Assembly (NCBI GenBank): GCA_963668185.1
Contig: OY764162.1
Span: 530,800 to 594,799, forward strand
Direction of reading: 5' to 3'
DNA: 64,000 nt
Source: Dehalococcoidia bacterium
GTDB lineage: Bacteria; Chloroflexota; Dehalococcoidia; Lucifugimonadales; G963668185
Shown: positions 34,280-63,853 of the stretch, in pieces
Numbering within the stretch: the first letter of the stretch is position 1
Layout: each line of letters starts with the position of its first letter
Notes under the pieces: generated by a model
Told to the model about the DNA's origin: nothing
Databases searched by the model: none
The model's input: the letters and a program-made list of their open reading frames with translations, nothing else
Position numbers and translations under genes: made by a program

Positions 34280-35818
34280 TCAACTCTCCACGATCGGCTG
34301 CGCCACGATCCACAGGCTCGTCGCCGTGTACAGCAGCATGAGCAGCAACATCGGGTACTGGCTGCGCATCGCGCCCGCGTGCGTCGCGAACCTGCGCAGC
34401 GCCGTCACGTGCGCCAGGTACACCGCGATCACGTGCCCCAGCACGATCGACACAATCGACAGGAACCACTCGAACTTCGTCGTAAGCAACGGATAGATCG
34501 TGTAGTCTGCGAGGCCGATCAGGTCCCATCCCCAACCGAACGGGTCCGACGCCAGCGGCAGTATCGTCTGGCCCTGGATGAGCAGCAGCACCAGGAAGTG
34601 CGCCACGTGGTAGGCCAGCGCGATCGGTATCAGCGAGTACAGGAACAGCTTGCAGACTTCCAGCGTCCCGATCGTCTCTCCGGACAGCCGGCCCATTGCC
34701 CAGCAAAAGCAGTAGTACATGCCGAAGAACGCTATCGGGAACATCAGCAGCCCGAACGTCCCCACCGCCTCAGGCGCGGCGTCCCCCAGGAACTCCAGCC
34801 GCGGCTGCGCGATGCTCCGGAACTCGTTCCACGGCCCCGTGGCCGCAAAGCCGTCGTATGTGACCGTCGAGAGCAGCAGGACGACGAACGCCATTTCCCC
34901 CAGGCTGATCGCGCCGTTGCGGGCAAGGCCGACGGCGAACGGCCTGAGGTTGATCTGGCGGCGGGCCGGCGGCGCTAGCTCGTAGCACTCGTGGCAGTTG
35001 ACGCAGTCGTCGGGCGTGTCGATGCAATCGCCGTCGCACGTCCCGCACGGCTCCAGGTCCAGCGTGCGCAGCTCGGTCGGCGCGAACCGCGCAAAGTAGC
35101 CGAACAGCCTCGTGAACGCCTCGCCCCGGCGCAGCCACTCGTGGCGTCCGAACAGCAGCATCCCGCCCCACGTTATCAGCGAGTACGCGATTATCATCGT
35201 TGCCAGCGCCCGCGGCTCGCCCGCCCTCGCGAAGTTGTTCTCTACCCACGCGAACAGCCAGAACAGGACCAGCGCCGGCCAGACGTCCAGCCACGGCGGG
35301 CACCGGAACATGGGAGAGCCGCCGATGCCCAGCAGCCTTTCGGCCCACCTGAACGTGATGTTCCACGGGTTGACCGCCTTCCAGACGTCTCCGAAGAACG
35401 CCGACGCGAACACCATGCCCGTCCACCAGACGATCCACACGAACGTCGGCGTGAAGTTCGAAAAGACCAGGTTCTCGCCGAACAGCGACGTGGCCAGCAC
35501 GAGACCGAAGACGCCTATCGACAGCGCCTGGACGACCGCGGACGTCGCCCCGCTCACGAGTAACGGCCCGAGAACGCGCATCGAGAGCAGGTCAGCGCGC
35601 CAGTACCTGGCCCCCGTCAACCTCCTCTCCTGTACGAAGACGCCGATCATCACGAACGACACCGCCACGGCGGCCGCGGAGCCAATCAGGAAGTAGTTCA
35701 GCGGGACGGGAAGCGCGTACCGCCCTCCGATGCCGTGCGCGAACGCCGGAACGGCGGCCCACGCCAGCGCGCCCGCGAGCAGGAGCGCCGCCGCCGGCCT
35801 GGCGAGGCTGCGAATCAA
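34280..35818 (-). CDS. Polytopic membrane protein with Cys-rich loop (uncharacterised)
   Basis: The proposed TTG start at 35818 overlaps the upstream stop (TTGA). It gives a signal peptide MIRSLARPAAALLLAGALAWAAVPAFA followed by HG. There are more than 10 hydrophobic segments and a loop EPCGTCDGDCIDTPDDCVNCHEC (about 34981-35055). The track ORF extends to 36007 through an Arg-rich, non-protein-like region. Confidence 0.6.
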   Translation of the reverse strand: MIRSLARPAAALLLAGALAWAAVPAFAHGIGGRYALPVPLNYFLIGSAAAVAVSFVMIGVFVQERRLTGARYWRADLLSMRVLGPLLVSGATSAVVQALSIGVFGLVLATSLFGENLVFSNFTPTFVWIVWWTGMVFASAFFGDVWKAVNPWNITFRWAERLLGIGGSPMFRCPPWLDVWPALVLFWLFAWVENNFARAGEPRALATMIIAYSLITWGGMLLFGRHEWLRRGEAFTRLFGYFARFAPTELRTLDLEPCGTCDGDCIDTPDDCVNCHECYELAPPARRQINLRPFAVGLARNGAISLGEMAFVVLLLSTVTYDGFAATGPWNEFRSIAQPRLEFLGDAAPEAVGTFGLLMFPIAFFGMYYCFCWAMGRLSGETIGTLEVCKLFLYSLIPIALAYHVAHFLVLLLIQGQTILPLASDPFGWGWDLIGLADYTIYPLLTTKFEWFLSIVSIVLGHVIAVYLAHVTALRRFATHAGAMRSQYPMLLLMLLYTATSLWIVAQPIVES

Positions 35819-36399
35819 CGCCCCGACCGCGCCTGCGCCCGCCGCGCCGCGAAGTACCTGCGCATGCTGAGGCCGACGATCGTCAGGAGCGCGAGCGCGA
35901 GGCCGAGGGTCAGCAGGCCGGGCCACGGGCTGGTCCTGGCGACGTCGAGCACGAACTCGGCGGTCGCCTCCCCGGGCGGAGCGTCCACCTCCACCACGAA
36001 CGTCCACGCCCCTTCGCGGTCCACCTCCACGTCCAGGTCATAGTCTTTCGGTGTGTCGGGGAGCGTGAAAGCGGGCAGGGGCCCGATCTCCGCGTCGGAG
36101 GACCCCGGCCCGCGGCCGGAGACCGTGACGCCGGCCCCCGTGATGGCTTCGTCAGAGCCCGCCTCCGCGAGTCTTACCGTGAGGTGAAGCGGGCCAACCC
36201 TCGGATCGGGCGGAGCGGTGCCCAGCGAGACCTCGTAGGGGCCGGCCGTGCTGCTGACGTACTTCGTGACGCGCCCGTTTCCCTCGGCCTCGCCCGCCCA
36301 GCCCCCGCTCGAAGCGACGAACGCGAATGCCGAGAGCGCCAGCGCCCAAACCGCGATGAGCGATGCGACGGTCATCCAACCCGCCCGCTCGCGTACCAT
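35815..36399 (-). CDS. Membrane-anchored Ig-like (YtkA/FixH-like) domain protein
   Basis: I chose ATG 36399 (MVRERAGWMTVASLIAVWALALSAFAFV signal/anchor). The beta-rich body (YEVSLGTAPPDPRVGPLHLTVRL...GAGVTVSG) is followed by a C-terminal TM (WPGLLTLGLALALLTIVGL). The family call is tentative. Confidence 0.5.
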   Translation of the reverse strand: MVRERAGWMTVASLIAVWALALSAFAFVASSGGWAGEAEGNGRVTKYVSSTAGPYEVSLGTAPPDPRVGPLHLTVRLAEAGSDEAITGAGVTVSGRGPGSSDAEIGPLPAFTLPDTPKDYDLDVEVDREGAWTFVVEVDAPPGEATAEFVLDVARTSPWPGLLTLGLALALLTIVGLSMRRYFAARRAQARSGR

Positions 36400-36495
36400 A
36401 AGAACTGTTCGCACCTCCCGATAGCCGCGCCGCGCTCCCGTGCATGCTCCCCCCATTCTACATCCGCCGCACCGAGCAAGACCCGCGCCCCCAAC

Positions 36496-36642
36496 CCGTT
36501 CGCCCTGATCCCGTCGAAGGGCCTTACGCAAGACACCGCACGAGACCTCCGGCGTAGGGGCCGCTCGCGAGCGGCCCATGCCTCGCGCTCCCAATGCCGC
36601 TCGCCCTCACCAACCCCGTTCGCCCTGATCCCGTCGAAGGGC
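36496..36642 (+). repeat. Two copies (120-bp period) of the 27-mer variant CCGTTCGCCCTGATCCCGTCGAAGGGC
   Basis: Copies lie at 36496-36522 and 36616-36642, in the same orientation as the 34.2-kb copies. Confidence 0.8.
36558..36577. repeat. Perfect 20-bp palindrome GGGCCGCTCGCGAGCGGCCC
   Basis: The first half is the exact reverse complement of the second. It lies between the two 27-mer copies in the divergent intergenic region. Confidence 0.8.
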
Positions 36643-36646
36643 CGCG

Positions 36647-36676
36647 TTGACCCGCCCCTCGCTCGTGCCATACGAT
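36647..36676 (+). promoter_or_regulatory. Putative sigma70-type promoter of lipoprotein paralog 1
   Basis: TTGACC (36647-36652), an 18-nt spacer, then TACGAT (36671-36676). The same arrangement is conserved at 63854-63882 ahead of paralog 3. Confidence 0.4.
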
Positions 36677-36728
36677 ACAGGCATCCGGCGTAGCGACTTC
36701 CCTTTCTCACAAGCATCGGAGGCAAGCG

Positions 36729-38420
36729 ATGCGCTACACGCGACACATCCTGTTGGCGTTCCTCGGGCCGGCTATCGCGTCCTGCGCGCTGCTGATCGTT
36801 GTCGCCGCATGCGGCACGAATGGCGACGGCGCGGCGGTCCGGGACTCGGTTGTCACTCCTCCAACAACCGGAGGACAGACGGTGACGGAGGTGGCGCCGG
36901 TAGCGCCGGTAGTTCTCTTTCACGGTGATACCGTGGTCGAGCAGAAGATCCTGGACAGCGACGTGATCGTCAGGGCGACGATGGCCTCTTCCACTTCGGA
37001 GGTCTTCCACAATACCGTCGATTACAGGGCGAAGCTGAAGTTCAGGCTCAACGTCAGCGAGTACCTGAAGGGCAGCGGCCCGACCAGCATCGTAGCAGTG
37101 TGGGTTGACGGGACCGGGTACGATACTCGTGCGAAGGCCGAGGCCAGAAAGGCGCGCATTCTCGCCTCGCGCGACACCCAATGGGACAACCGGGAGGCGG
37201 TCTTCTTTCTGCGGAATGGAGCGGCTGACTGGGAAGCGTCCGAGTATGCCCTGGGGCTGGGGCATGAGTTTAAGCTGGGGCATGAGTATGGCGACGATCT
37301 CTACAGCCTGCACAGCGAGAGGAACAGGAGGTGGCTGCCCGCCGCGGCGAGCGCGGCGGGCGCATCGAGCGTTGACGCCCGGGAGTACCTGCTCGACGTG
37401 CCGCATACGGGAGGGGCCGTCGGGGCGAGCTCCGGTACAACCGCGCCTACCATCAGCCTTGGCAACTTGAAGAAGCGTATCAAAGAAGTCACGGCGGAGT
37501 ACAACGGCGGAGACGGGTCGGAGGCCTACAAGGAGTGCGTCAAAGGAAAATATGCATTCGAGCGCATGGTCCGCCACTCTCAGCTGGAGGGTGACGACTA
37601 CCTCAGCAACGACTATTACCATCACTTGAAACACGCGCTTGCGTCCGGTCAGCCCGCCAACTCCGTGCTGCATCAGAGGGAGAACCACGGCATCTATCCT
37701 GATCAAAAGGCGAGGACGTGGCTGGAGGGCGGGGACGCCGCGCTGTTCAGCGTCGTGCAGGGGACATCGACTCCTGTTGACTATGACGAAGACGGAGTGC
37801 TCACTGCCGGGGCGGATGGAATCTATTTCACCGAGACATTCAGGACGGTTCGTCCGCTGCCTGCGGGCGTGTACAGGTCAAATCGCAAGGAAGTGTGGGC
37901 CCCTTACTTTGCATGTAACTACGCCATGAGCCTCAAATGGACGGTCACCGTGACGGCTCCAGCGGGCACGGTGCACGAGGCGTTCTTCGACCCGGCGTCC
38001 ACGTTCCTGGGCGTCGGCGCGAGCGGCGGCGCGGGCGTGATCTCCCCGGCGTCCTTCAACGTCGGCGGCGTGACCACCACGATCACGCGGATAGTAGTGT
38101 CGTTCGGCAGCATGGTCACCATGCAGATATCGCCGTCGGTCTCGCTGTCCGGCAAGCACATGGAGTTCATCAAGGTGGACGGCACCGTGGCGGCAAGGCT
38201 GTCGTTCGATAAAGGGGACCTCAAGGGCGGCATCGGCATCGGCGGGGCCGGCACCGACACGGGCACCAGCACGGCGGAGGCGGCAGTGTCGGCGGCGGCG
38301 CACGCGGAGATAGCGGCGGCTCTCGCCGAAGCGCAGGCCACGGGAAGCAAGATGTACTTCTGGTTCGTGTCCAGTTCGCCGTGGAAGGCGGGGGACAAGC
38401 TGATGCTGCGCATACGGTAG
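36729..38420 (+). CDS. Uncharacterised lipoprotein, paralog 1
   Basis: RBS GGAGGC. Signal peptide plus lipobox (LLIVVAACGT). The 563-aa protein is homologous to the next gene along its whole length, and the last ~160 aa are nearly identical. Confidence 0.7.
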   Translation: MRYTRHILLAFLGPAIASCALLIVVAACGTNGDGAAVRDSVVTPPTTGGQTVTEVAPVAPVVLFHGDTVVEQKILDSDVIVRATMASSTSEVFHNTVDYRAKLKFRLNVSEYLKGSGPTSIVAVWVDGTGYDTRAKAEARKARILASRDTQWDNREAVFFLRNGAADWEASEYALGLGHEFKLGHEYGDDLYSLHSERNRRWLPAAASAAGASSVDAREYLLDVPHTGGAVGASSGTTAPTISLGNLKKRIKEVTAEYNGGDGSEAYKECVKGKYAFERMVRHSQLEGDDYLSNDYYHHLKHALASGQPANSVLHQRENHGIYPDQKARTWLEGGDAALFSVVQGTSTPVDYDEDGVLTAGADGIYFTETFRTVRPLPAGVYRSNRKEVWAPYFACNYAMSLKWTVTVTAPAGTVHEAFFDPASTFLGVGASGGAGVISPASFNVGGVTTTITRIVVSFGSMVTMQISPSVSLSGKHMEFIKVDGTVAARLSFDKGDLKGGIGIGGAGTDTGTSTAEAAVSAAAHAEIAAALAEAQATGSKMYFWFVSSSPWKAGDKLMLRIR

Positions 38421-38647
38421 GCGCGCCCGCACTGCCATGCCGCGCGCCCCTCAAGCTGTCATTCCGAGTCCCCCGAGGAATCTTGGACTTCCCGCATGTC
38501 GCCAACCCTAATCCCCGGCAAGCCGCGCATTCGGCCAAGGCAGGACGCTTTGGGCAACGGTGCGTCTTGGATTCCCTTCAAGGGACTCAGGGCAGGCTCT
38601 CTCTCGCTTCGCTCGATCGGAATGACAGGGGACGCGAGACAACAGCA

Positions 38648-40390
38648 ATGAAACGTCGCGGTTACATCGCGGGATTACTGCATGCCAGTCTGCTGTTGGT
38701 CGCGTGCTGCGCGCTGTTAGTGGCCGCCGCCTCATGCGGCACAGCCGTTGATGTCCCTATAGTCCCCACACCCACGACTGAGGTCGGACACAGTGCAGCT
38801 TCAGACAACACGCCGACTCCCACGGCTACGGCTGAGGTTGGGGACGACGGTGCAGTTGCCAGCGATGCGATTGTTCCTACGCCAACTCCCGAGGTTCAAG
38901 TCCAGGCTCATAGGCCGGCCTCGTTCGTAGTCTTTGACGTACCTGCCTCACTCGAGGAACAGATTTACTATTCGGACGTGATCGTGCGCGCAACGCTGAA
39001 GTCCGCGACTTCAACGACGGAGACGGTCGACAGCGGCGCTTCAGCAACGTATCGGCCGGTACACGAGCTCAGGTTCATCATCCACGAGTATCTGAAGGGC
39101 AGCGGGCCGTCTGAGGCGGTGGTAGTTGCTGCGCGTGGAGATGAGTACGCGACAGTCGCAGAAGCGCACAAGAAGGCAGATTGGGCCATGACCCATCGAA
39201 ACACCACATGGGACAGCCGCCAGGGAGTGCTATTCATGGTGAAGCTTCCCAGTTCCTATAACCCTGCCAGCGCAGCGAGTGCGGCGACTACGACAGCGTT
39301 CGGACTACTCAGAGGCTCTATGGGCGAATCCTTACCGTGGTGGGGTCATACTGTCGATACACTCAGCCGTGGGTGGTTGCCAGCGGGGGATGCTACGGGA
39401 GGCGTAAGCTCGGACGGCGGCGCGTCTGGCGCGGCCAGCGTGTCGTTCATAGAGGACGGGTCAAAGTCGCCTTACCCCACGGTCACTCTGGGTCAACTTC
39501 GTACCAAGATATCGGAGATGGTAGCTACTCTGAAGGCAGGAGAGGGGATCGATGGGTACGACGAGTGCATCCGCCGCAAGATTTATCGTGAGCGGCTGAA
39601 TCGCGCAAGACCATGGACACCGCTCCAAGATACGGTGTCCATGCCCTCAGGTTCAGCGACAGGAACGGAGGTCTTCAGGGATCGGAAAAGCGCTGGGGAG
39701 CCGAAGTACATTCGATACTATGTGACCGGCCCGGACAAGGACTACTTCCAATCACCTAACATTGATGATGACTCAGATCCGTCTAACGGGTACTTCCGCA
39801 CACTTTCCAACACTCGTCCCCTGCCTGCCGGTTCGTACGCCATCAAAAGACACCAGTGGCATTACAGTTACTTTCCTTGCAACTACAAGGCTGGTGACTC
39901 CAACTACGATGAATGGACGGTGACTGTCACCGCCCCGCCCGGCACGGTGCACGAGGCGTTCTTCGACCCGGCGTCCACGTTCCTGGGCGTCGGCGCGAGC
40001 GGCGGCGCGGGCGTGATCTCCCCGGCGTCGTTCAACGTCGGCGGCGCGACCACCACGATCACGCGGATAATAGTGTCGTTCGGCAGCATGGTCTCCATGC
40101 AGATATCGCCGTCCGTGTCGCTGTCCGGCAAGCACGTCGAGTTCATCAAGGTGGACGGCACAGTGGCGGCAAGGCTGTCGTTCGACGCGGGGGACCTCAA
40201 GGGCGGCATCGGCATCGGCGGGGCCGGCTCCGACACCGGTACCAGCACGGCGGCGGTGTCGGAGGAGGCGCAAGCTGAGATAGCGGCGGCGATGTCAGAG
40301 GCGCAGGCCACGGGAAGCAAGATGTACTTCTGGTTCGTGTCCAGCGCCCCGTGGCAGGCCGGGGATAAGCTGATGCTGCGGATACGGTAG
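38648..40390 (+). CDS. Uncharacterised lipoprotein, paralog 2
   Basis: I chose ATG 38648 (MKRRGYIAGLLHASLLLVACCALLVAAASCGT, lipobox) over the track start 38381. It shares islands SDVIVRAT, EYLKGSGP and RPLPAG with paralog 1 and has a near-identical C-terminal module. Confidence 0.7.
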   Translation: MKRRGYIAGLLHASLLLVACCALLVAAASCGTAVDVPIVPTPTTEVGHSAASDNTPTPTATAEVGDDGAVASDAIVPTPTPEVQVQAHRPASFVVFDVPASLEEQIYYSDVIVRATLKSATSTTETVDSGASATYRPVHELRFIIHEYLKGSGPSEAVVVAARGDEYATVAEAHKKADWAMTHRNTTWDSRQGVLFMVKLPSSYNPASAASAATTTAFGLLRGSMGESLPWWGHTVDTLSRGWLPAGDATGGVSSDGGASGAASVSFIEDGSKSPYPTVTLGQLRTKISEMVATLKAGEGIDGYDECIRRKIYRERLNRARPWTPLQDTVSMPSGSATGTEVFRDRKSAGEPKYIRYYVTGPDKDYFQSPNIDDDSDPSNGYFRTLSNTRPLPAGSYAIKRHQWHYSYFPCNYKAGDSNYDEWTVTVTAPPGTVHEAFFDPASTFLGVGASGGAGVISPASFNVGGATTTITRIIVSFGSMVSMQISPSVSLSGKHVEFIKVDGTVAARLSFDAGDLKGGIGIGGAGSDTGTSTAAVSEEAQAEIAAAMSEAQATGSKMYFWFVSSAPWQAGDKLMLRIR

Positions 40391-40412
40391 GCCCCACCCG
40401 GGCCACCCCTTG

Positions 40413-40432
40413 ATTCCGGCCTTCGCCGGAAT
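40413..40432 (+). terminator. Hairpin ATTCCGGC-CTTC-GCCGGAAT downstream of lipoprotein paralog 2
   Basis: An 8-bp perfect stem with a 4-nt loop lies 23 nt after the stop codon. There is no U-tract, so the terminator role is tentative. Confidence 0.3.
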
Positions 40433-40470
40433 GACGATGGGGATAGGAGATTGCGGGAAGAGGTTGGAGC

Positions 40471-40494
40471 AAGCTGATGCTGCGGATACGGTAG
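40471..40494 (+). repeat. Orphan 24-nt copy of the lipoprotein gene 3' end (AAGCTGATGCTGCGGATACGGTAG)
   Basis: It is identical to 40367-40390, the last 7 codons plus stop of paralog 2, and lies 80 nt downstream of that stop. Confidence 0.85.
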
Positions 40495-40516
40495 GGGTTT
40501 GCGGACGGTTCCCGCC

Positions 40517-40545
40517 TTGACACTGCCTGCCTTCGGTGCTAATTT
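40517..40545 (+). promoter_or_regulatory. Putative sigma70-type promoter of Rieske oxygenase paralog 2
   Basis: TTGACA (40517-40522), a 17-nt spacer, then TAATTT (40540-40545), about 60 nt upstream of ATG 40605. Confidence 0.45.
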
Positions 40546-41834: not shown

Positions 41835-41925
41835 CCGTTCGCCCTGGCCCCTTCCCCAGTCTGCTGGGGAAGGTTGGGATGGGGCTCTCCGGCGTGATCC
41901 GTTCGCCCCGAGCCTGTCGAAGGGC
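41835..41925 (+). repeat. Composite intergenic repeat: truncated 27-mer, 10-bp-stem hairpin, 27-mer
   Basis: CCGTTCGCCCTG (41835-41846); hairpin CCTTCCCCAG-TCTG-CTGGGGAAGG (41850-41873); CCGTTCGCCCCGAGCCTGTCGAAGGGC (41899-41925). The same architecture occurs at 63738-63847. Confidence 0.7.
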
Positions 41926-49397: not shown

Positions 49398-51122
49398 CTA
49401 CTCTTTCTGACCGCTGGGCGCGAAGTCCTGCACGGTTAGCTGGACTCTCCTGCGTCCACGCCACTCGTCAATCGTCGGCGAGTACACGACGTCGATCCGC
49501 CCGTATGCCTCCTGAAGCCGATCTCCCATCCTGAACGCGATCGCGTCTAGTAGCGCGCCGCCCTCGAACAGCGCCAGCTTCAGATGGCGACCGTCTTTTC
49601 CGACGCGCCTCGCCTCCGCCACGCTGACGCCCCTAGCGACGAAGACGGGCCTGGGATTGTCCTGGCCGAACGGCGACAGAGACTCTACGAACTGCACGGC
49701 GCTCTCAGAGGCGGCGGAGAGCGGCAGCTCGCAGTCGATTTCCAGCGTGGGCGTCAACGTCGAAGGGTCTATCCTGGCGGCGGCATAGTCATGCAGTCTC
49801 CGCTCGATCTCAGGGAGATCTGAGGTCCTGGCGGTGAACCCGGCCGCAAGCGCGTGACCTCCATGCCGTATCAGCAGGTCCTCGCACAACCGCAGCGCCC
49901 CCACTATGTTCACCTCCGGGATGCTTCGGGCGCTCGCCCGGCTGACCTCTGGCCCTTGTGACATGACTATTGCCGGCCGCACGTGCTCGTCGCTGAGTTG
50001 CCCGGCCATCGGGCCCAGGATGCCGGGGTGCCAGTCCGGGTGACCCACGACGATGATCGGCGGGACTCCGCCCGGGAAGCGCGTCTGCTCCTCAGCGAGC
50101 GACATCGCTTCGTCCGTCAGGGACCTCCGTTGCTGGTTCAGATGCTCCAGTTCGGCGGCAAGCTGTTGCGCCTCGGCTGGGCTGGTTGTCGTCAAGAGAT
50201 CGAGGCTGGTCTTGGGCGTTCCTATCCTGCCTGCGGCGTTCAGTCTCGGAATGAGCGAGAAGGCCAGGTCAACCTCATCCAGCGTCCCCCGCGATACCCT
50301 TGCCGACTCCATCAGCGCCCTCAGGCCGGTGTTCCCGGTCCGGTTCAATTGCCTGAGGCCCCGTGACACGAAGTAGCGGTTCTCTCCCTCCATCGGCCCC
50401 ACGTCGGCCACCGTTCCGAGCGCTACCAGCTCCAGCAGGTGCTCGGGGCGACGAAGGCCCCGGCTCTCGAACATCGCGGCGACCAGCTTGTATGCCATGC
50501 CGGCCCCGGTCAGGTCTTTGAAGGGGTACTTCGATCCCGGCATCCCTGCGTGTACGACGGCGCAGGCGGCGGGAAGCAGGGCCTCGGGCGAATGGTGGTC
50601 GGTGACTATGGTGTCGATGCCGAGCTGCGAGGCGAGACCTACCTCGTCCAGGTCGGTTACGCCGCAGTCCACGGTGACGCAGACCGTCGCGCCCGCGTCG
50701 GCTAGCTCTCGTACCGCGTCCGCATTCAGGCCGTGGCCTTCGGCCTCTCGGTCCGGCAGGTAGGGGATCGTGCGTCCGCCCAACTCCTGCAGGCCGAGCA
50801 CAAGGACCGCCGTGCCGCTGATGCCGTCCACGTCGAAGTCGCCGTAAACGCCGATCGTTTCGCCCGCGCGAATGGCCGCCTCCAGCCGTCGCACGGCTTG
50901 GGCCATGCCTGGAATCAGTCCAGGGTCATGCTCCAAGTGTGGGCCGACTTCTAGGAATGCCCGGGCCTCCTCAGGCGTGCGGACGCCCCGGTTGTACAGA
51001 AGGCGCGCATGGAGCGAGGGCAGGTCCAGCCGGTCGGCGAGCCCAGCCGGCGGGGGAGGGGCAATGCGCCATGTCTTCGAGGGCCTGGTCGAGGAAGGGT
51101 AGGGCGTGCCGGCCGAGGTCAA
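49398..51122 (-). CDS. recJ: Single-stranded-DNA-specific exonuclease RecJ
   Basis: DHH motifs (GDFDVDGISG, VTVDCG, VTDHH) and a DHHA1 region. The track start 51170 (TTG) would overlap fabF by 47 nt. I prefer TTG 51122, 2 nt after the fabF stop with AAGGA upstream, but the start is uncertain. Confidence 0.85.
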   Translation of the reverse strand: MTSAGTPYPSSTRPSKTWRIAPPPPAGLADRLDLPSLHARLLYNRGVRTPEEARAFLEVGPHLEHDPGLIPGMAQAVRRLEAAIRAGETIGVYGDFDVDGISGTAVLVLGLQELGGRTIPYLPDREAEGHGLNADAVRELADAGATVCVTVDCGVTDLDEVGLASQLGIDTIVTDHHSPEALLPAACAVVHAGMPGSKYPFKDLTGAGMAYKLVAAMFESRGLRRPEHLLELVALGTVADVGPMEGENRYFVSRGLRQLNRTGNTGLRALMESARVSRGTLDEVDLAFSLIPRLNAAGRIGTPKTSLDLLTTTSPAEAQQLAAELEHLNQQRRSLTDEAMSLAEEQTRFPGGVPPIIVVGHPDWHPGILGPMAGQLSDEHVRPAIVMSQGPEVSRASARSIPEVNIVGALRLCEDLLIRHGGHALAAGFTARTSDLPEIERRLHDYAAARIDPSTLTPTLEIDCELPLSAASESAVQFVESLSPFGQDNPRPVFVARGVSVAEARRVGKDGRHLKLALFEGGALLDAIAFRMGDRLQEAYGRIDVVYSPTIDEWRGRRRVQLTVQDFAPSGQKE

Positions 51123-51123
51123 G

Positions 51124-52362
51124 TCAGTCCTTGAACTCTTGGAAGACCAGCGACGCGTTGTGGCCGCCAAAGCCGAACGAGTTGCTCATCACCGTGCTTA
51201 CCTTGCCGCGCCGCGCCGTGTGCGGCACGTAGTCGAGGTCGCACGCCGGGTCCGGGGTCTCCAGGTTGATGGTCGGCGGCATGACGTCGTCCGCTATGGA
51301 AAGCACGCTCACCGCCGCCTCGATCGCTCCGCTCGCGCCGAGCAGGTGCCCGGTCATCGACTTCGTGGACGAGATCGGTATCCTGTAAGCCTCCTCTTCG
51401 AAGACCGACTTGATGGCCATGGTCTCGTACTCGTCGTTCAGAGGCGTGGATGTCCCGTGAGCGTTGATGTAGTCGACTTCGTCCGGGTTTATCCCGGCGT
51501 CTTTGAGCGCCAGCTTCATTGCTCGCGCGCCGCCTTCGCCCTCCGGCGCGGGTTGGGTGACGTGGTGGGCGTCGGCTGTGGAGCCGTAGCCGACCATCTC
51601 GGCGATCGGCGTCGCGCCCCGTCTCTCGGCGTGCTCCAGCGACTCCAGCACCAGGACAGCCGCGCCTTCGCCCATCACGAACCCGTCGCGCTCCGCGTCG
51701 AACGGACGGGAGGCGCGCTGAGGATCGTCGTTTCGCTTCGAAAGCGCGCGGCACGCGTTGAATCCGGCCACGCCAATGGGGCAAATCGCCGCTTCGGACC
51801 CTCCGGTGACGGCGGCGTCCACGTCGCCCCGGCGTATGTACTGGAACGCCACGCCTATGGAGTCAGCGCCGCTGGAGCAGGCCGAGACGGTGGAGAAGTT
51901 CGGCCCCTTCGCGCCAAGCGCCATCGAGACCTGGCCGGACGCCATGTCCGGCAGCATCATCGGCACGAAGAACGGGCTGATCCGGTTGGGGCCGGACTTC
52001 TGCAGAACGCCCAGTTGGTCGGACAGCGTAATAAGCCCTCCGATGCCGCTTGCGACCATTGAGGACACCCTGTGCGAGTTCGTCCCGTTGATGCTCAGCC
52101 CCGCGTGCGCCTGCGCCTCGAGCGCCGCCGCGACGGCCAACTGCACGAACCGGTCCATCCGCCTGGCTTCCTTGCGGCCCAGAAGCGACTCCGGTTCGAA
52201 GCCTTTGACTTCTGCCGCGATAGTCGTCGCGTACCCGTCCGTATCGAATGACGTGATCTGGTCCACGCCGGACCTGCCTTCCACCAGCCCATCCCAGGTG
52301 GACTCCCGGTCCAGCCCAAGCGGGCTGACGACGCCGACACCGGTTACGACTACACGGTTCAT
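51124..52362 (-). CDS. fabF: Beta-ketoacyl-ACP synthase II
   Basis: MNRVVVTGVGVVSPLG; active-site context SACSSGA; HGTSTPLND; SFGFGGHNA. Confidence 0.9.
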   Translation of the reverse strand: MNRVVVTGVGVVSPLGLDRESTWDGLVEGRSGVDQITSFDTDGYATTIAAEVKGFEPESLLGRKEARRMDRFVQLAVAAALEAQAHAGLSINGTNSHRVSSMVASGIGGLITLSDQLGVLQKSGPNRISPFFVPMMLPDMASGQVSMALGAKGPNFSTVSACSSGADSIGVAFQYIRRGDVDAAVTGGSEAAICPIGVAGFNACRALSKRNDDPQRASRPFDAERDGFVMGEGAAVLVLESLEHAERRGATPIAEMVGYGSTADAHHVTQPAPEGEGGARAMKLALKDAGINPDEVDYINAHGTSTPLNDEYETMAIKSVFEEEAYRIPISSTKSMTGHLLGASGAIEAAVSVLSIADDVMPPTINLETPDPACDLDYVPHTARRGKVSTVMSNSFGFGGHNASLVFQEFKD

Positions 52363-52517
52363 GTGCGTTGGACTCCAGGCTCCTTTACCGCCGAAAGGGA
52401 CGATTATGAAACAGCCCGCCGAATCTCATCATCGACCGGCCGCCCCTTCAGGCGGCGTCAAGGATACCACAAGGCTGTTCAGCCGCCGCAGTTCCTCATC
52501 CTGCTAGAATCCTGTCC

Positions 52518-53879
52518 ATGATTGGCGTACCAAACGCAGCTATTGCGAGCGACGGGCCTCGCGTGGTCATCGAGACGCACGGCTGCAAGCTCAACCAAGC
52601 CGACTCAACGCAAATCGCCTGGGAGTTCGTGGAGTCAGGATTCCGAGTCGTAAGCACGGATGACCCCGCCGACGTGTACGTGGTGAACACGTGCACGGTG
52701 ACCCACGTGGCGGACCGCAAGGCGCGGCAGGCCCTGCGCGCCGCCCGCCGCAGGAACCCCGACGCCGTCGTGGTGGCCGCGGGCTGCTATGTCGAGCGCG
52801 CGCCGGAAGTGCTCGACGGCCTGGATGAAGTGGACATGGTTGTCGGCAACACCGACAAGCCTGATCTGGTGCGCCGCGTCCTGGAGTGGCGGGGCGATTC
52901 GCCGGTCCCGTGCGCCGTGGGCGCCGAGCCGGATGGCTACAATCCCCGCGTACTTCGCACACGCGGCATGGTCAAAATCCAGCACGGCTGCGACCAGGTT
53001 TGCGCATACTGCATCGTCCCCAGGGTGCGGGGCAGGGAGCGGAGCGTACCGCCTCCCGAGGTGGTGGCCCAGGTTCGCCGCTACCTAGATCTTGGCTACA
53101 AAGAGATCGTGCTGACGGGCACGCAGCTTGGCAGCTACGGCTTCGACCTCGAAGGCGAAACCCTCGCCGGCCTGATCGAGCGCGTGCTGACCCACACGGC
53201 GGTGCCGCGCCTCCGCGTTTCGTCGCTCCAGCCGCAGGAGATAGACGTGCGGCTGCTGGACCTATGGCCCGATGCGCGGCTGTGCCCTCACTTCCACATG
53301 CCGCTCCAGAGCGCCGCTCCCGCCGTGCTCAAGCGAATGCGGCGCAGGTACACGCCCGAACGATATGCCGAGGCGGTGGAAGACATTCGCACCCGTGTTC
53401 GAGGCAGCTCAGTTACGGCGGACGTGATAGCGGGCTTTCCCGGGGAGACCAAGGAAGACTTCGAAGCCACGTATCGCTTCTGCGAGCGTATGGGATTCGC
53501 GTCCATGCACGTGTTCCCGTATTCGACCCGTCCCGGTACGAGCGCCGCGCACTTCAAGGACCACGTCGAGCCCCGGGTCAAGGCCGAGCGAGTCGCGAGG
53601 CTGCTCTGGCTGGCTGAGACTTCGTCGGCTAGATTCAGGCGCGGCCAACTTGGCCGCACAAGGCCGGTTCTGTGGGAAAGCAGGCGCGAGGGCAACGCCG
53701 GCGGCAGCGAGTACCTCGGCCTGACCGACAACTACGTCCGCGTGATTGCCGCCTCCGATCGTGACCTCACAAACACTATCGCCGACGCTAGGCTTCTGCG
53801 GCTTGAAGGCGATCTCGTACGCGCGCGATGCGCTGCGCTGCCAGCCGCGTCGCTCGAAACTGCCGAAGCCTCCGACTAG
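52518..53879 (+). CDS. mtaB: Radical SAM methylthiotransferase, MiaB-like (MtaB type)
   Basis: UPF0004 N-domain (IETHGCKLNQ...VNTCTVT), radical-SAM CxxxCxxC (GCDQVCAYCIVP), and a C-terminal TRAM-like region. Confidence 0.75.
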   Translation: MIGVPNAAIASDGPRVVIETHGCKLNQADSTQIAWEFVESGFRVVSTDDPADVYVVNTCTVTHVADRKARQALRAARRRNPDAVVVAAGCYVERAPEVLDGLDEVDMVVGNTDKPDLVRRVLEWRGDSPVPCAVGAEPDGYNPRVLRTRGMVKIQHGCDQVCAYCIVPRVRGRERSVPPPEVVAQVRRYLDLGYKEIVLTGTQLGSYGFDLEGETLAGLIERVLTHTAVPRLRVSSLQPQEIDVRLLDLWPDARLCPHFHMPLQSAAPAVLKRMRRRYTPERYAEAVEDIRTRVRGSSVTADVIAGFPGETKEDFEATYRFCERMGFASMHVFPYSTRPGTSAAHFKDHVEPRVKAERVARLLWLAETSSARFRRGQLGRTRPVLWESRREGNAGGSEYLGLTDNYVRVIAASDRDLTNTIADARLLRLEGDLVRARCAALPAASLETAEASD

Positions 53880-54712
53880 AGCGCGACTGGAAGCAGCTTA
53901 GCCCTTCCGTTCGTCTGCTCCAGGTAGCCCGCGTGGCAATCCAGCCCGTGCCCGAACACCAGTAGCCAGCCGTAATCGATCGCAGTCCTGATCAAGTCCC
54001 GTTTCTTCACCAGCGTGTCATTCGGGTCCTGGTCGGTCGCCGCAATGTACGTCAGATCCAGGTGGTGCGGCGTCGGAATGAGGTCGCCCGCGTAGGCGAT
54101 CCGCTCCGCGCTGGACTCGATGTACACCATCTGGTTGCCACGCATGTGGCCGCCCGCGACCCGCACCACGATGCCGGGCGCGATCTCTGTCTCGCCGTCC
54201 AGCAGCGTGATCATGCCCTTCTCTTCCAGCGGCAAGAAGTCGTCCTCGTGCAGCGCGTCCAGCTCACGTTCGTTGGGGTTGTTCGCCGCTTCCCAGCACT
54301 CGCGTTGCACCATATACTCGGCCTTGGGGAAGACCGGCACCGCCGTCCCCATCCTGTCCAGCTTGGTGCAGCCGCCCGCATGATCGAAGTGCAGGTGCGT
54401 CAGAACAACCTTGTCAATGTCTCTGGCCGTCAGGTTGATCGCCTTCAGATTCTTGAGGAGCTTGTTACCCTTGAGCAGGAACTTATCCTTGAGCTTGTCA
54501 GCCCGTTTGGATCCCGCGCCCGCGTCGATGAGAATGTTCGACGTCGGAGTCCTGATGACAAGGCAGTTCATCGAGAGCCGCACCCTGTTCCTGCGGTCCG
54601 GCTTTGAAAATTGCTCCCATTCTGCCTTTGGTATCTGTCCGAATACTGCCCCTCCGTCCATCATGTAAGTGCCGTCGCTCACAACGTCAACGGAAATGTT
54701 TCCAACTTTCAT
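53876..54712 (-). CDS. MBL-fold metallo-hydrolase
   Basis: HxHxDH motif (THLHFDHAGG). I chose ATG 54712 over the track start 54772. Its stop overlaps the mtaB stop within a CTAG. Confidence 0.75.
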   Translation of the reverse strand: MKVGNISVDVVSDGTYMMDGGAVFGQIPKAEWEQFSKPDRRNRVRLSMNCLVIRTPTSNILIDAGAGSKRADKLKDKFLLKGNKLLKNLKAINLTARDIDKVVLTHLHFDHAGGCTKLDRMGTAVPVFPKAEYMVQRECWEAANNPNERELDALHEDDFLPLEEKGMITLLDGETEIAPGIVVRVAGGHMRGNQMVYIESSAERIAYAGDLIPTPHHLDLTYIAATDQDPNDTLVKKRDLIRTAIDYGWLLVFGHGLDCHAGYLEQTNGRAKLLPVAL

Positions 54713-55010
54713 ACAAAAGACCCTTCGAAAAGAGGTATCGCCAGTGGTCGGACTCTGCACGCGAGAGTCCAAGGTGGCTGGGGGGCAAGGTGCCGGTGAA
54801 ATCCCGGACCTGTCAGGGAGAACCGTCTTCTGCGCCCCGCAGCATAGACACTAATTCGCGTTTGCGAAATGACGCAAGGCGTTCTTGTGCCCCTTTTGGC
54901 TGAGTCTTAGACTTGTCCAAGCCCTGGACGGCGTTATCCGGCAGCCATGGGCAACTGCCGGACTATGTTGACAGCCCGGTGTGCAGGCAGTACGGGGTAG
55001 GGGAGGTTGC

Positions 55011-56297
55011 CTACCTTCCCAGCCGCTCGACTGCGTCGTCGAACGCCGCGAGCGTTGCCTTCACGTCCTTGTCGTCGTGTGCCGTCGAAAGATAGAACTT
55101 CGAGCCGCCTTTGTAGATGCCGTTCTCGCGCAGCAGCCCGTTGAACTCGTTCTTCTTGTCGTCGTCCGCCCTCATGGTCCCGCGGTGGTCAACGATGTCC
55201 TCCTGGGTGAAGTACACGTCGAACATGACGTTTTCGCCGATCACCTTTGCCGGGATCTCAGCCACGTCCAGCCGCTCCTGCAGGCCTTCCCGCAGCGTCC
55301 TTCCCACCGCCTCCTTGCGTTCGTAAGTCCCCTCGCGCTTCAGTATGTTCAGCGTTGCGAGACCGGCCGCAGACGCGATCGGGTTGCCGTTGAGCGTGCC
55401 CGCCTGGGGCAGGGACTTTCCGCTGGGCATGCCGGCCTGGTCGAAGTGGGCCATGATCTCGTCGCGGCCTGCCACCGCCGTCAGCGGGTGCCCGCCGCCG
55501 ACCGCCTTGCCGAGCGTGCAGAGGTCCGGCGTGACGCCGTAATACTCCTGCGCGCCGCCGTAGCCCAGTCTGAACCCCGTAACGACCTCGTCGAAGATCA
55601 GTGGAATCTCGTACTGGTTCGTAATCTCGCGAAGTCCCGCCAGGAAGCCGGTCACGGGCAGGATCAGCCTCTGCATCGGCTCCACGATCACTCCGCCGAT
55701 CTCGTCGTGGTACTGCTCGACGATTGCGGCGGTCGTCTCGAGGTCGTTGAACGGCGCGACCAGCACCTCGTCCTCCACAGACTTCGGGATGCCGGCCGAG
55801 TTGGGCTCAGCCTGCGGATAGTCCAGTTGCTCGGTCGGGAAGATGCTCATCATGGCATGGTCGTTCATGCCGTGGTATGCGCCGTCGAACTTGAGGATCT
55901 TATCGCGGCCCCGGAACGCCCTGGCCGCGCGCATCGCGAACATCGTGGCCTCCGTGCCGGTGCAGCAGAACCGCACCTTGTCCGCGCACGCGACGGCGTT
56001 GACAACCTCCTCCGCGAGCAGCACCGTCTCCTCGGTAGCGCCGAAGAAGGTGCTGCCGGTCTCGAGCTGGTTGCGCACCGCCTCGACCACTTCCGGGTGC
56101 GCGTGCCCAACGATCATCGGGCCGGAGCCGAGCAGATAGTCGATGTACTCGTTGCCGCTGGCGTCCCAGATATGGCTGCCACGGCCGCCGCCGACTATGA
56201 ATCCTCTTGACCCGTGGCCGGTCGACCCGCCGGGAAAGTAAGCGTCGGCCTTCCTGACCAGTTCCTGTTCGTGGTCGGACACGTATCGTTCTGCCAT
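55011..56297 (-). CDS. Class III aminotransferase (glutamate-1-semialdehyde aminomutase-like paralog)
   Basis: YIDYLLGSGPMIVGHAHPEVVEAV and the overall HemL-like layout are present. The HemL N-terminal GGVNSPVRAF motif is replaced by GGSTGHGSRGF, so I do not call it hemL. Confidence 0.8.
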   Translation of the reverse strand: MAERYVSDHEQELVRKADAYFPGGSTGHGSRGFIVGGGRGSHIWDASGNEYIDYLLGSGPMIVGHAHPEVVEAVRNQLETGSTFFGATEETVLLAEEVVNAVACADKVRFCCTGTEATMFAMRAARAFRGRDKILKFDGAYHGMNDHAMMSIFPTEQLDYPQAEPNSAGIPKSVEDEVLVAPFNDLETTAAIVEQYHDEIGGVIVEPMQRLILPVTGFLAGLREITNQYEIPLIFDEVVTGFRLGYGGAQEYYGVTPDLCTLGKAVGGGHPLTAVAGRDEIMAHFDQAGMPSGKSLPQAGTLNGNPIASAAGLATLNILKREGTYERKEAVGRTLREGLQERLDVAEIPAKVIGENVMFDVYFTQEDIVDHRGTMRADDDKKNEFNGLLRENGIYKGGSKFYLSTAHDDKDVKATLAAFDDAVERLGR

Positions 56298-56363
56298 CTC
56301 GTTCTCCCTTATGGTGTGTGGTGCTGAGTGCGATTATACAGTGGAGGGCCGCGCCGAACGCGC

Positions 56364-56642
56364 CTATCTCTTCTCTGCCAATCGCCCCGACAGGTATTTG
56401 TGGATCACGCTGGAAAGCAGGGTCTGGTACGGGATGCCTTCCTCCCTTGCGCGTGAGTGGGCGAGCGAAAAGTCCCTCTCGGTCATCCGCAGGTTCACGC
56501 GGCGGGTCTTGTTGAACGTGTTCCTGGCCGCCTGCCGCGCGGCCTGCATTTCGCCTTCGGCGTTGGCGATGGACACGAGCCGGCCGCGCTCGAACGCTTC
56601 TAGTATCTCCTGTTCTTCTTCGGTCATGCTGTCTTTCATCAT
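56364..56642 (-). CDS. brnA: BrnA-type (CopG/RHH) antitoxin
   Basis: EEEQEILEAFERG...VNLRMTERDFSLAHSRAREEGIPYQTLLSSVIHKYLSG is the typical BrnA layout. It overlaps the upstream toxin gene by 4 nt. Confidence 0.75.
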   Translation of the reverse strand: MMKDSMTEEEQEILEAFERGRLVSIANAEGEMQAARQAARNTFNKTRRVNLRMTERDFSLAHSRAREEGIPYQTLLSSVIHKYLSGRLAEKR

Positions 56643-56971
56643 TGTTGCTTCCTCCGGTAGCTCTTCGTAGCCTTGCTGCTCGGTATTATTGTTTTTAGAA
56701 AGCGTGTGCCGTCTGCCTCTAGGATAAATGGGACTAGATAGACGTAGTTTCCCATGTCCACTACGTAGATTAACTGCCCCGGGTAGCGCTCCTGGTTAGG
56801 ATGTTCTAAGACGTCTAGCAGCCCGCCTTGCTCAATGGCGGAGACCATGAGTTCAAAAGACACGCCTCTGGTACTGCGGAGAAGCTGGTCCTTGTCCGTA
56901 CTCCAGTCGTAACCCTCGCCCCGAATGTTATCATAGTACAATGTACACCCACTATAACACAATGTATGCAC
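56639..56971 (-). CDS. brnT: BrnT-like (DUF497) ribonuclease toxin
   Basis: YDWSTDKDQLLRSTRGVSFELMVSAI...ERYPGQLIYVV...RFLKTIIPSSKATKSY follows the BrnT pattern (W..K...N..HG.SFE ... R.IS.R.A...E...Y). The start is ambiguous (GTG 56971, TTG 56962 or TTG 56941). GC is only about 45-50%. Confidence 0.6.
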   Translation of the reverse strand: MHTLCYSGCTLYYDNIRGEGYDWSTDKDQLLRSTRGVSFELMVSAIEQGGLLDVLEHPNQERYPGQLIYVVDMGNYVYLVPFILEADGTRFLKTIIPSSKATKSYRRKQQ

Positions 56972-57030
56972 TTTGTCATCAAGGACACCGTTTGTTGACT
57001 CGTCAAGCGAGCATTGCCAGCGGTTCCGTT

Positions 57031-57055
57031 TCGTTCGTGGTGAGCTTGTCGAACC
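57031..57055 (-). repeat. 25-nt dispersed repeat GGTTCGACAAGCTCACCACGAACGA (copy 2, reverse orientation)
   Basis: It is the exact reverse complement of 10873..10897 and lies about 60 nt upstream of the brnT start on the brnTA coding strand. Confidence 0.8.
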
Positions 57056-57205
57056 ATGAGCGGGCTGCTGGCCGCTATTCTAGGTCATCGCCTGTAACGA
57101 AACGGAACCCTGACAGCCGAGGCCCTCTGTGGGGTGCCAGCTAGCTTTGCTTCCTTTACGGGTGCAGGGCCATGCCCTGCCTGTGCTAAAATCAGACCGT
57201 CTCGC

Positions 57206-57283
57206 GGTGAGTGTGGCCAAGAGGTTTAAGGCGCCAGGTTGTGGCCCTGGAGATCGAGGGTTCGAATCCCTTCACTCACCCCA
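57206..57283 (+). tRNA. tRNA-His (anticodon GTG)
   Basis: Hand-folded cloverleaf. Acceptor GTGAGTG/CACTCAC; an encoded G-1 opposite C73; anticodon stem CCAGG/CCTGG with loop TTGTGGC; T arm GAGGG-TTCGAAT-CCCTT; encoded CCA. Confidence 0.85.
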
Positions 57284-57378
57284 CCCCTCACGTATCTACA
57301 GGACTCCGTCTTGTCGCTGTTGCCGGTCCGGCCTGCCGCCCACGCGGCTATCATGCCATAATTGAAGGTGCTCAGCGT

Positions 57379-57454
57379 GCGCCTGTAGCTCAACGGACAG
57401 AGCATCGGTCTTCGGAACCGAGGGTTGCGGGTTCGAATCCTGCCAGGCGCGCCA
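57379..57454 (+). tRNA. tRNA-Arg (anticodon TCG)
   Basis: Hand-folded cloverleaf. Acceptor GCGCCTG/CAGGCGC; D arm GCTC-AACGGACA-GAGC; anticodon stem TCGGT/ACCGA with loop CTTCGGA; T arm GCGGG-TTCGAAT-CCTGC; encoded CCA. 76 nt. Confidence 0.9.
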
Positions 57455-57527
57455 CCCACGCCGGGAACTTTTATGCGTCTGCCGTCGTCTCTATCACAGT
57501 AACGCTTCAAATCCTTGAGGTACTGAC

Positions 57528-62208: not shown

Positions 62209-62232
62209 TCTTTTGTACTTGAGCTATGACGG

Positions 62233-63847: not shown

Positions 63848-63853
63848 CCCGCG

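Follow-up and report, generated by a model that had tools for sequence, protein, structure and literature searches.

The analysed stretch of DNA (64,000 nucleotides of contig OY764162.1 from a Dehalococcoidia bacterium, hereafter referred to as the window) carries on its + strand, to which all positions of genes, module copies and repeats given below refer, two tandem genes that encode members of an uncharacterised Chloroflexota lipoprotein family with a C-terminal ...WxxGDKLMLRIR domain. The first of these genes, paralog 1 (P0001; 36729-38420), specifies a 563-aa lipoprotein, the N-terminus of which displays the elements of an SPase II signal peptide, i.e. MRYTRH, ILLAFLGPAIASCALLIV and the lipobox VAAC with Cys28 (encoded at 36810-36812). 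The second gene, paralog 2 (P0084; 38648-40390), specifies a protein of 580 aa which starts at 38648 (MKRRGY...) and contains the lipobox AASC. The family, which has no Pfam, NCBIfam or PDB relative, numbers more than 1000 proteins in metagenome bins of Chloroflexota, and LRR or fibronectin-type-III domains are fused to some of these. A structure model of P0001 (pLDDT 75.8) produced matches to beta-sandwich and OB-fold (TIMP-like) structures, and considering that these matches are weak and generic no function was assigned to the protein. The 227-nt spacer between the two genes contains neither a promoter-like nor a terminator-like site, and paralog 2 is therefore possibly co-transcribed from the promoter predicted upstream of paralog 1.

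The region upstream of paralog 1, together with the start of the gene (36616-36770), is homologous to a segment located 27 kb away at locus 3 (63821-63975), the two copies of this module (≈155 bases each) being ≈86-88% identical. In the 113 nt upstream of the ATG, 100 of the 115 aligned columns are identical (87%), and the 128-nt module without its 27-mer retrieves a sole match from the window, namely its partner copy (88% over 125 nt, E = 4e-38). The order of elements is the same in both copies: a 27-nt dispersed repeat, TTGACC-N18/17-TACGAT, a leader of ≈46 nt, GGAGG, ATG and 13 codons. Similarity drops sharply past codon 13, and the sequences upstream of the proximal 27-mer are non-homologous between locus 1 and locus 3. 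A preliminary description of this DNA had reported upstream homology over ≈113 nt, beginning with the 27-mer and including the TTGACC and TACGAT hexamers and the start region, and each of these features was found where it had been placed; sequence comparison also supports its view that copies 1 and 2 share a promoter-like, leader and signal-peptide 5' end.

Both copies contain the -35 region GCGTTGACC, with TTGACC at 36647-36652 (copy 1) and 63854-63859 (copy 2), followed after 18 nt and 17 nt, respectively, by TACGAT (36671-36676 and 63877-63882). Judged by these hexamers and their spacing, both copies conform to the -35/-10 arrangement of a sigma-70-type promoter (TTGACA, TATAAT, 17 +/- 1 nt), each promoter-like site matching at 9 of 12 positions (36647-36676, for which 0.1 sites are expected in shuffled sequence, and 63854-63882). 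The whole window contains 10 sites of this 9/12 quality when both strands are considered (128 kb of scanned strand), two of which are those of copies 1 and 2, and both of these are situated 52 nt (from the -10 end to the ATG) upstream of an ATG that is preceded by GGAGG. Transcription would start near 36683 and 63889, as placed from the position of the -10 hexamer, and the predicted promoters of both copies are expected to fire. The resulting predicted 5' leaders (≈46 nt in copy 1, 36683-36728; 63889-63933 in copy 2) encompass the GGAGG Shine-Dalgarno sequence at 36718-36722, located 6 nt before the ATG, and at 63923-63927, respectively. The window contains exactly two occurrences of a leader 32-mer, CATACGATRCAGGCATCCGGCGTAGCGACTTC, against an expectation of zero. 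Translation starts within GCATCGGAGGCA(A/G)GCGATG, the ATG at 36729 leading into MRYTRHILLAFLG (the codons common to both copies; 36729-36770) and that at 63934 into MRYSRHIVLAFLG.

The left edge of each module copy is formed by a proximal 27-mer (36616-36642 and 63821-63847), the two being identical to each other at 25 of 27 positions. A distal 27-mer is present at both loci: that at locus 1 (36496-36522) brackets, together with the proximal one, a 93-nt hairpin-containing spacer, and that at locus 3 is found at 63738-63764. The TTGACC hexamer begins 4 nt (copy 1) and 6 nt (copy 2) after the repeat, in agreement with the few nucleotides originally noted. This proximity would be expected if the promoter belonged to the dispersed 27-mer, i.e. 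a MITE- or REP-like repeat with an outward-facing promoter. However, that explanation is contradicted within the window, where five of the seven full 27-mers (34202, 34245, 36496, 41899 and 63738) precede unrelated right flanks with no promoter behind them; furthermore, the module without the repeat exists in two copies only, and a 2-nt indel distinguishes the copies at the repeat/module junction. A repeat-borne promoter is thus considered extremely improbable, and the proposed fusion of the expression signals to a dispersed repeat is not a functional one, since five of seven repeats lack a promoter. Intergenic repeats of the REP, BIME and MITE types can create promoters, as exemplified by the Correia elements of Neisseria. 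The arrangement described here is similar in that a short dispersed intergenic repeat directly precedes a promoter and coincides with a rearrangement junction, yet it differs in that the promoter is outside the repeat, while the 27-mer is not palindromic (5-bp stem only) and all eight of its copies are direct repeats in the same orientation on the + strand. The 27-mer would represent an independent dispersed intergenic repeat that delimits the homology on its left side and, in the case of locus 3, also marks the edge of a lineage-specific segment.

The conservation of the leader could alternatively reflect a cis-regulatory RNA (riboswitch, thermosensor or sRNA target) or an operator that is maintained by selection. 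Consistent with this, the leader contains a run of 22 nt that is identical between the copies, and in both of them GUAGCG of the leader can pair with CGCUAC of codons 2-3, as can GCAUCG with CGAUGC around the Shine-Dalgarno sequence and AUG. Nevertheless, a permutation test of the differences between the copies indicated that an identical run of this length, the longest observed, is expected at 87% identity (P = 0.48); for the most tightly clustered differences P = 0.06 was obtained. The test is compatible with evenly scattered differences, and the notion that conserved blocks are a sign of selection was consequently abandoned. Moreover, the leader produced zero matches to Rfam even at E <= 10, and folding of both copies revealed neither a significant nor a common structure, with differing MFE structures and z-scores of -0.2 to -1.1; two sequences offer no covariation power. 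A regulatory leader is accordingly regarded as quite improbable. From its sequence, the module looks like neither a part of a mobile repeat nor a known regulatory RNA.

The two tandem genes are also related at their 3' ends. Nucleotide identity between paralog 1 and paralog 2 is ≈40%, rising to 92-100% over the last ≈500 nt, where a 3' constant block of paralog 1 (37936-38422) corresponds to 39912-40392 of paralog 2 (92-100% in 60-nt windows). This 3' block is common to all eight known paralogs of the source genome, each of which is full-length with its own start and signal peptide. The 5' block has been seen at two loci and is absent from paralog 2. The lack of the cassette upstream of paralog 2 had been correctly noted, but its signal peptide is not, as had been thought, wholly different, given that homology with paralog 1 extends over the hydrophobic region and the lipobox (79% nucleotide identity over 43 nt).

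Comparison with other genomes demonstrated that P0001 is a chimera, consisting of a local-type 5' end, a foreign-type body and the local constant C-terminus. With P0002 and P0006, both from other genomes, its body shares 73% and 62% identity, respectively, as compared to 34-40% with the paralogs of its own genome. For the C-terminus (last ≈159 residues) the relationship is reversed, with 87-93% identity to same-genome paralogs and 50-53% to P0002 and P0006. Similarly, the first 45 aa of P0001 attain scores of 56-91 against same-genome paralogs versus 21-32 against the other-genome proteins with the closest bodies, and family members from other genomes have in nearly all cases a signal peptide of the type MIRxMxLIP..LLACG.

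The explanation that we favour, and consider somewhat more probable than all others combined, is that the module is an ordinary sigma-70-type expression and export module which has been spread by non-allelic recombination in a mosaic lipoprotein family. This explanation draws together direct observations, namely that the two copies are homologous and have the anatomy of promoters, that P0001 is chimeric, that the 3' block is homogenised and that synteny breaks at the repeat. A similar organisation is seen at other loci: three tandem paralogs at L004 have ≈100 nt of upstream sequence, the signal peptide and the 3' third in common, and dispersed paralogs (L002, L005, L006 and L007) have in common the RBS-proximal 12 nt and the signal peptide. 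The module would consist of a predicted promoter, an untranslated leader of ≈46 nt, GGAGG 6 nt before the ATG and a positively charged start of a lipoprotein signal peptide. Paralogs of the multi-copy family would swap ends by non-allelic homologous recombination (gene conversion), which is proposed to be the reason why at least two module copies exist. Gene conversion would also be what keeps the final ≈480 nt almost identical in every one of the eight or more paralogs, and would have grafted "local" 5' and 3' ends onto the "foreign-type" body of paralog 1. Genes downstream of the module would receive from it common signals for transcription, translation initiation and Sec/lipoprotein export, and are therefore proposed to be co-regulated. 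For the 5' module, of which two copies are known, movement by conversion rather than simple duplication is inferred from the parallel with the 3' block and from the chimerism of the protein. The earlier suggestion that recombination places new gene bodies behind one promoter holds insofar as the family has been reshaped by recombination, as evidenced by the P0001 chimera; the "one promoter" part does not, because a complete promoter-like site is present in both copies.

The 87% identity could instead have resulted from a moderately recent duplication. The simplest model is indeed that one gene was copied along with its promoter, the 5' similarity reflecting recency or purifying selection with no exchange between paralogs. 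The differences between the copies, being no more uneven than chance, are in line with such a duplication, and so are the tandem paralogs of L004, which show that in this family the upstream flank can be duplicated along with the gene. On the other hand, similarity is lost abruptly after codon 13, P0001 is chimeric at both ends, and no protein in the database is more than 61% identical to P0001, although the source proteome is represented there. Plain segmental duplication is for these reasons judged unlikely, while retaining an appreciable chance.

At locus 3, the ORF behind copy 2 (MRYSRHIVLAFLGAIVLASFLA...; 63934-64000) extends to the edge of the window, so that 22 codons are visible, covering the n-region and part of the h-region. 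The assumption that copy 2 heads a family member could not be confirmed from these 22 codons: when this N-terminus (22 aa, X-padded) was compared with a database of 5.8 billion sequences, which includes eight family paralogs and 99-aa proteins from the source contig, no protein with three common 5-residue words was retrieved. A frameshift may conceivably have occurred in copy 2 past codon 13: over the 26 nt available, the +2 frame reads ..SPGELPCA, a sequence similar to the ..LPAVVPCA seen in other paralogs. What follows copy 2 may thus be a non-family gene or a relic.

The DNA preceding copy 2 (57160-63717) is collinear with L013 at ≈80% nucleotide identity and then diverges, collinearity with relatives stopping at 63717, 20 nt upstream of the distal 27-mer. 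Six relatives display at the position of locus 3 the gene order hydrolase-DAO-amidase (hydrolase-oxidoreductase-amidase) with no cassette, and the closest relatives of the neighbouring hydrolase (86-92% aa identity; L008-L014) all lack both the cassette and a family gene at that position. By this comparison, copy 2 is contained within a lineage-specific segment, the left edge of which lies at the 27-mer composite. In L005 the hydrolase orthologue has a family gene at a distance of 1.8 kb, and in L007 another adjoins the Fic orthologue; the idea, based on these neighbours, that both loci are ancient was dropped for locus 3 in view of the hydrolase-DAO-amidase order in six closer relatives.

The module without the 27-mer was found in two copies in the window and in none of 14 other loci examined, and a search of two public collections yielded no true match. 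The leader 20-mer CAGGCATCCGGCGTAGCGAC gave one match in each collection, both dismissed as chance: in genome_contigs within an unrelated coding region of L001 (an unannotated frame taken to be a TetR-type regulator gene), and in metagenome_contigs inside an unrelated 554-aa ORF of L003. A location of the leader upstream of many unrelated genes, which the preliminary description had itself named as incompatible with its proposal, was not observed in these searches, no unrelated gene being preceded by it. Its notion of a portable cassette for the family was not borne out at family-wide scale, given that two copies are known and the tandem paralog 2 is without one. Most N-termini of the six remaining source-genome paralogs are of a different type from that of the module.

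Surface-lipoprotein multigene families with a highly conserved promoter/5' UTR/signal-peptide region and variable bodies are represented by vlp, vsa and vsp of Mycoplasma, where switching is brought about by promoter homopolymer tracts or through site-specific inversion involving defined recombinase sites. Unlike these, the Chloroflexota copies have no homopolymer tract, no promoter-flanking inverted repeat and no adjacent recombinase that was noticed. Homopolymer runs in the promoter spacer do not exceed C4 in copy 1 and C5 in copy 2, and features of slipped-strand phase variation (a long homopolymer in the spacer, a tandem repeat in the first codons) are absent from both copies. No inverted repeats were found around the promoter or cassette at either copy, nor was a recombinase noticed beside either copy among the neighbouring genes scanned (Fic, an unannotated ORF without Pfam match, HigBA and hydrolase), so that neither hallmark of an invertible promoter was seen.

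The bab surface-protein genes of Helicobacter pylori (babA/babB/babC) occupy separate loci and have conserved 5' and 3' regions around a divergent middle, gene conversion between them generating chimeras that join the 5' region and regulation of one gene to the body of another (PMC4552749). The Chloroflexota family resembles bab in having paralogous genes at separate loci, conserved ends, a divergent middle and a chimera. It differs in that the 5' CT dinucleotide repeats which give phase variation in bab have no equivalent tract in the module, in that bab proteins are outer-membrane beta-barrel adhesins rather than lipoproteins, and in that exchange is directly observed in bab but deduced from sequence here. 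In Borrelia hermsii, the UHS of vmp genes (≈60 bp) extends from just upstream of the transcription start to the first ≈26 bp of the lipoprotein coding region and acts as the upstream crossover point, a second homology block (DHS) being located downstream (PMC6011951). The module is likewise a conserved block that runs through the start region into lipoprotein codons and is accompanied by downstream homology. Yet the -35/-10 sequences are outside the UHS and inside the module, the downstream homology is extragenic in Borrelia and intragenic (C-terminal domain) in Chloroflexota, and the Borrelia arrangement of one active promoter with about 60 silent promoterless copies is not what is seen here, both copies having a complete promoter-like site.

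These parallels raise the alternative of programmed variation, in which the 5' module (with the 27-mer) and the 3' block act as crossover anchors for an ongoing exchange of bodies, with copy 2 as an expression site or landing pad. Such a system would account for conserved gene ends around a variable middle, for the existence of the P0001 chimera, for the position of copy 2 in a lineage-specific segment bounded by repeats, and for a shared block which, like the Borrelia UHS, spans from upstream of the transcription start to the first codons (PMC6011951). Against it, both copies carry full promoter-like sites and each of the eight known paralogs is a full-length gene that encodes a signal peptide of its own, implying that there are no silent cassettes; neither promoter-flanking inverted repeats nor a recombinase was noted, as indicated above; and the copies differ by 13%, so that any exchange is not recent. 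Programmed variation is thus deemed improbable. A marginally better, though still slim, chance is given to a recombinational surface-variation system in which the 5' module, delimited by the 27-mer, and the 3' block are homology anchors for the movement of variable ligand-binding bodies between loci, copy 2 being an orphan or "empty" expression site. To our knowledge, no bab- or vmp-like strategy has been described in Chloroflexota.

The cassette in itself would be an ordinary duplicated promoter region, its value being that of a marker. Taken together, the cassette, the homogenised 3' block and the chimerism of paralog 1 point to a large unannotated lipoprotein family that evolves by exchange of ends between loci. 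For expression work in these organisms, the module may also serve as a native promoter and leader that is ready to use. Should the exchange still be in progress, the family would qualify as a candidate for surface variation in an uncultured lineage; otherwise, the two copies would constitute a routine case of paralogs with common regulatory DNA.

The promoter, leader and signal-peptide module upstream of paralog 1 (copy 1, 36616-36770) and that at locus 3 (copy 2, 63821-63975) were compared by direct reading and by alignment, which revealed that they are collinear from the 27-mer, a dispersed intergenic repeat located at the left edge of each copy, through codon 13, and that the two loci share no similarity 5' of the 27-mer or past codon 13. 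From 5' to 3', the copies are identical at 25 of 27 bases of the 27-mer (25 of 29 columns if a 2-nt indel at its junction is counted), 10/10 positions of CGCG plus TTGACC, 15 of 18 columns of the promoter spacer (18 nt in copy 1, 17 nt in copy 2), 6/6 of TACGAT, 22/24 of the following 24 nt, 7/12 of a 12-nt linker, 18/19 from the Shine-Dalgarno sequence to the ATG, and 32/39 across codons 2-14, with GGAGG preceding either ATG at 6 nt. Over the upstream 113 nt, 100 of 115 columns (87%) are identical; the preliminary description of the features of both copies is accurate.

The 32-mer of the leader occurs twice in the window where no occurrence is expected, and the 128-nt module without the 27-mer matched solely its partner (blastn, word size 7; 88% over 125 nt, E = 4e-38), the same sensitive search retrieving no partial copies from the rest of the window or from the loci obtained up to that stage. 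Exact scanning for the leader 20-mer returned a single chance match within a coding region among approximately 185,000 species-representative genomes, and likewise a single such match in the JGI metagenomes. Both copies were classed as promoter-like by a consensus scanner, and its re-implemented version identified only ten sites of this kind across the whole window, counting both strands, among them the two in copies 1 and 2. A near-consensus promoter, TTGACA-17-TAATTT, is present at 40509-40545 upstream of a Rieske oxygenase gene, from which it follows that canonical sigma-70-type promoters exist in the source genome.

With regard to a possible function of the leader RNA, no Rfam match was found in the leader, and the minimum-free-energy folds of the two copies are unlike each other and no better than those of shuffled sequences. 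The apparent blocks of conservation fit a random spread of 15 differences across 115 columns; the longest stretch free of differences is 22 nt (P = 0.48), and the densest cluster of differences has P = 0.06. In its layout the module resembles the Helicobacter bab genes, with their conserved 5' regions, and the Borrelia vmp UHS; it does not display the defining properties of expression-site, inversion or slipped-strand systems, nor those of a repeat-borne promoter. What the two loci carry is an ordinary 5' end, made up of a predicted promoter, a leader and a signal-peptide start.

The 27-mer is represented in the window by seven full copies (34202, 34245, 36496, 36616, 41899, 63738 and 63821) and one half copy (41835), distributed over four intergenic regions, usually as direct pairs flanking a hairpin-containing spacer. 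Alignment of all copies limited conservation to approximately 28 nt between unrelated flanks, and no promoter lies behind five of the seven full copies; the promoter is therefore external to the repeat, and the proposed fusion of cassette and repeat is positional rather than functional. The 27-mer is non-palindromic, and the folding of the repeat composites is not significantly better than that of shuffled sequences. All eight copies occupy the + strand, and their opposite-strand translation yields PFDRLRANG-type pseudo-peptides. Distant genomes also contain related copies (L005, 9851-9873, minus strand; L008, 11066-11092). A hairpin module, ggccccttccccagtctgctggggaaggttgggatgggg, is found between 27-mers at 41845-41884 and 63771-63813, as well as in L008 (1388-1427 and 5681-5719), L013 (8696-8747) and L014 (10781-10828); its copies in the different genomes are 97-100% identical, against nucleotide identities of only ~80-84% for the genes of these genomes, and it represents either a mobile repeat or a repeat under strong constraint.

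Relatives of locus 3 were reached through the cluster members of the hydrolase adjoining copy 2. The segment 57160-63717, encompassing two tRNAs, an alpha-2-macroglobulin gene, an antitoxin and the hydrolase, is collinear with L013 at ~80% nucleotide identity, while L014 is collinear with 49770-57456 and the hydrolase gene. Collinearity ceases at 63717, 20 nt ahead of the distal 27-mer, and the genes behind the hydrolase in L009-L014 encode a DAO-family oxidoreductase and then an amidase, neither cassette nor family gene being present at these hydrolase loci; copy 2 therefore resides in a segment that is peculiar to the source lineage and starts at the repeat composite. The region 57528-62532, which has the tRNA genes on one side and the hydrolase on the other, carries the gene for the alpha-2-macroglobulin-type lipoprotein (1439 aa) and a HigB/HigA toxin-antitoxin pair (minus strand); at the matching place in L013 the macroglobulin gene is called together with an HTH antitoxin-like gene, without a toxin gene, and in L014 the block is wholly missing.

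Twenty-two codons of the copy-2 ORF fall inside the window. In the database, no protein has three 5-residue words in common with these residues, and this N-terminus is found in none of the eight family paralogs of the same genome, the database including these paralogs and 99-aa proteins of the same contig. Accordingly, the ORF is probably a short or an interrupted one, or its called start lies elsewhere, and copy 2 may be a relic 5' end.

Paralog 1 (36729-38420) encodes 563 aa with a lipoprotein signal peptide (lipobox VAAC), and the true start of paralog 2 is 38648 (MKRRGY...AASC), the product being identical to database protein P0084. Neither has sequence relatives in Pfam, NCBIfam or PDB. 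The AlphaFold model of paralog 1 (pLDDT 75.8) comprises an OB-like domain, a helical hairpin and beta-sandwich domains, with weak, generic structural matches. More than 1000 members of the family are present in the database, some fused to LRR or fn3 domains, and the few named ones derive from Chloroflexi/Chloroflexota metagenome bins; eight are encoded on the window's own contig (2,779,407 bp).

A 173-nt MITE-like element (38456-38628), whose 12-nt terminal inverted repeats match perfectly (CTGTCATTCCGA / TCGGAATGACAG), takes up the greater part of the spacer that separates paralogs 1 and 2, and no promoter-like or terminator-like site was found in this spacer. At 40391-40495 the last 26 nt of paralog 2 (CAAGCTGATGCTGCGGATACGGTAGG, ..KLMLRIR*) are repeated 78 nt past its stop, the insert between the two copies bearing the hairpin ATTCCGGC/GCCGGAAT; this duplication may be the trace of an insertion or of an aborted recombination. 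Divergently from paralog 1, the minus strand of 34280-36445 carries a 575-aa ORF without Pfam or NCBIfam match and, upstream in another frame, a 97-aa ORF (36152-36445) with a signal-peptide-like start and GGAGG ahead of an internal ATG at 36401; the two ORFs may be separate genes or parts of a single gene with a frameshift.

Paralogs 1 and 2 are ~40% identical at the nucleotide level over most of their length and 92-100% identical over the last ~500 nt, forming a homogenised 3' block (37936-38422 versus 39912-40392; families D1 and D2). Comparison of the eight same-genome paralogs (P0001, which is paralog 1, P0071, P0084, P0086, P0088, P0090, P0091 and P0104) showed 85-96% amino acid identity across the C-terminal ~159 aa (~480 nt) in every pair, whereas seven of the proteins have bodies that are 55-75% identical to one another, and the P0001 body reaches only 34-40% against these seven. 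The closest bodies to P0001 lie in other genomes (P0002, 73%; P0006, 62%), and yet the C-termini of these two proteins are only 50-53% identical to that of P0001. Residues 1-45 of P0001 score 56-91 against its genome-mates and only 21-32 against the closest-body proteins of other genomes, almost all of which have a signal peptide of another, widely conserved type, MIRxMxLIP..LLACG. P0001 therefore consists of a foreign-type body between local-type 5' and 3' ends, which is strong evidence that both ends were exchanged by non-allelic recombination or gene conversion.

The same architecture was observed in another genome (L004), where three tandem paralogs have a conserved upstream region and signal peptide, a variable middle and a conserved 3' third, and, in weaker form, among paralogs dispersed in two further genomes (L002, L005, L006 and L007). 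Approximately 75 nt upstream of two family genes are conserved between different genomes (L002, 3900-4000; L006, 2700-2790); in L002 they form the 3' end of an fn3 gene located upstream, in L006 only a relic of that end (..AQLKAIYLLH..*), and the family gene was therefore copied along with its 5' flank. The family genes P0007 and P0012 of another genome (L006, 2792-3001; L007, 2697-3001), whose real start and signal peptide lie upstream of the called start in another frame, are frameshifted pseudogenes or long-read assembly errors.

The earlier proposal of a portable cassette or of repeat-mediated recombination is partly supported: recombination in the family is borne out by the chimeric P0001, and a functional role of the repeat is not. 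The concerted evolution of the C-termini is a more striking finding than the promoter cassette, and the two loci most probably carry the module because this lipoprotein family swaps its ends by recombination.
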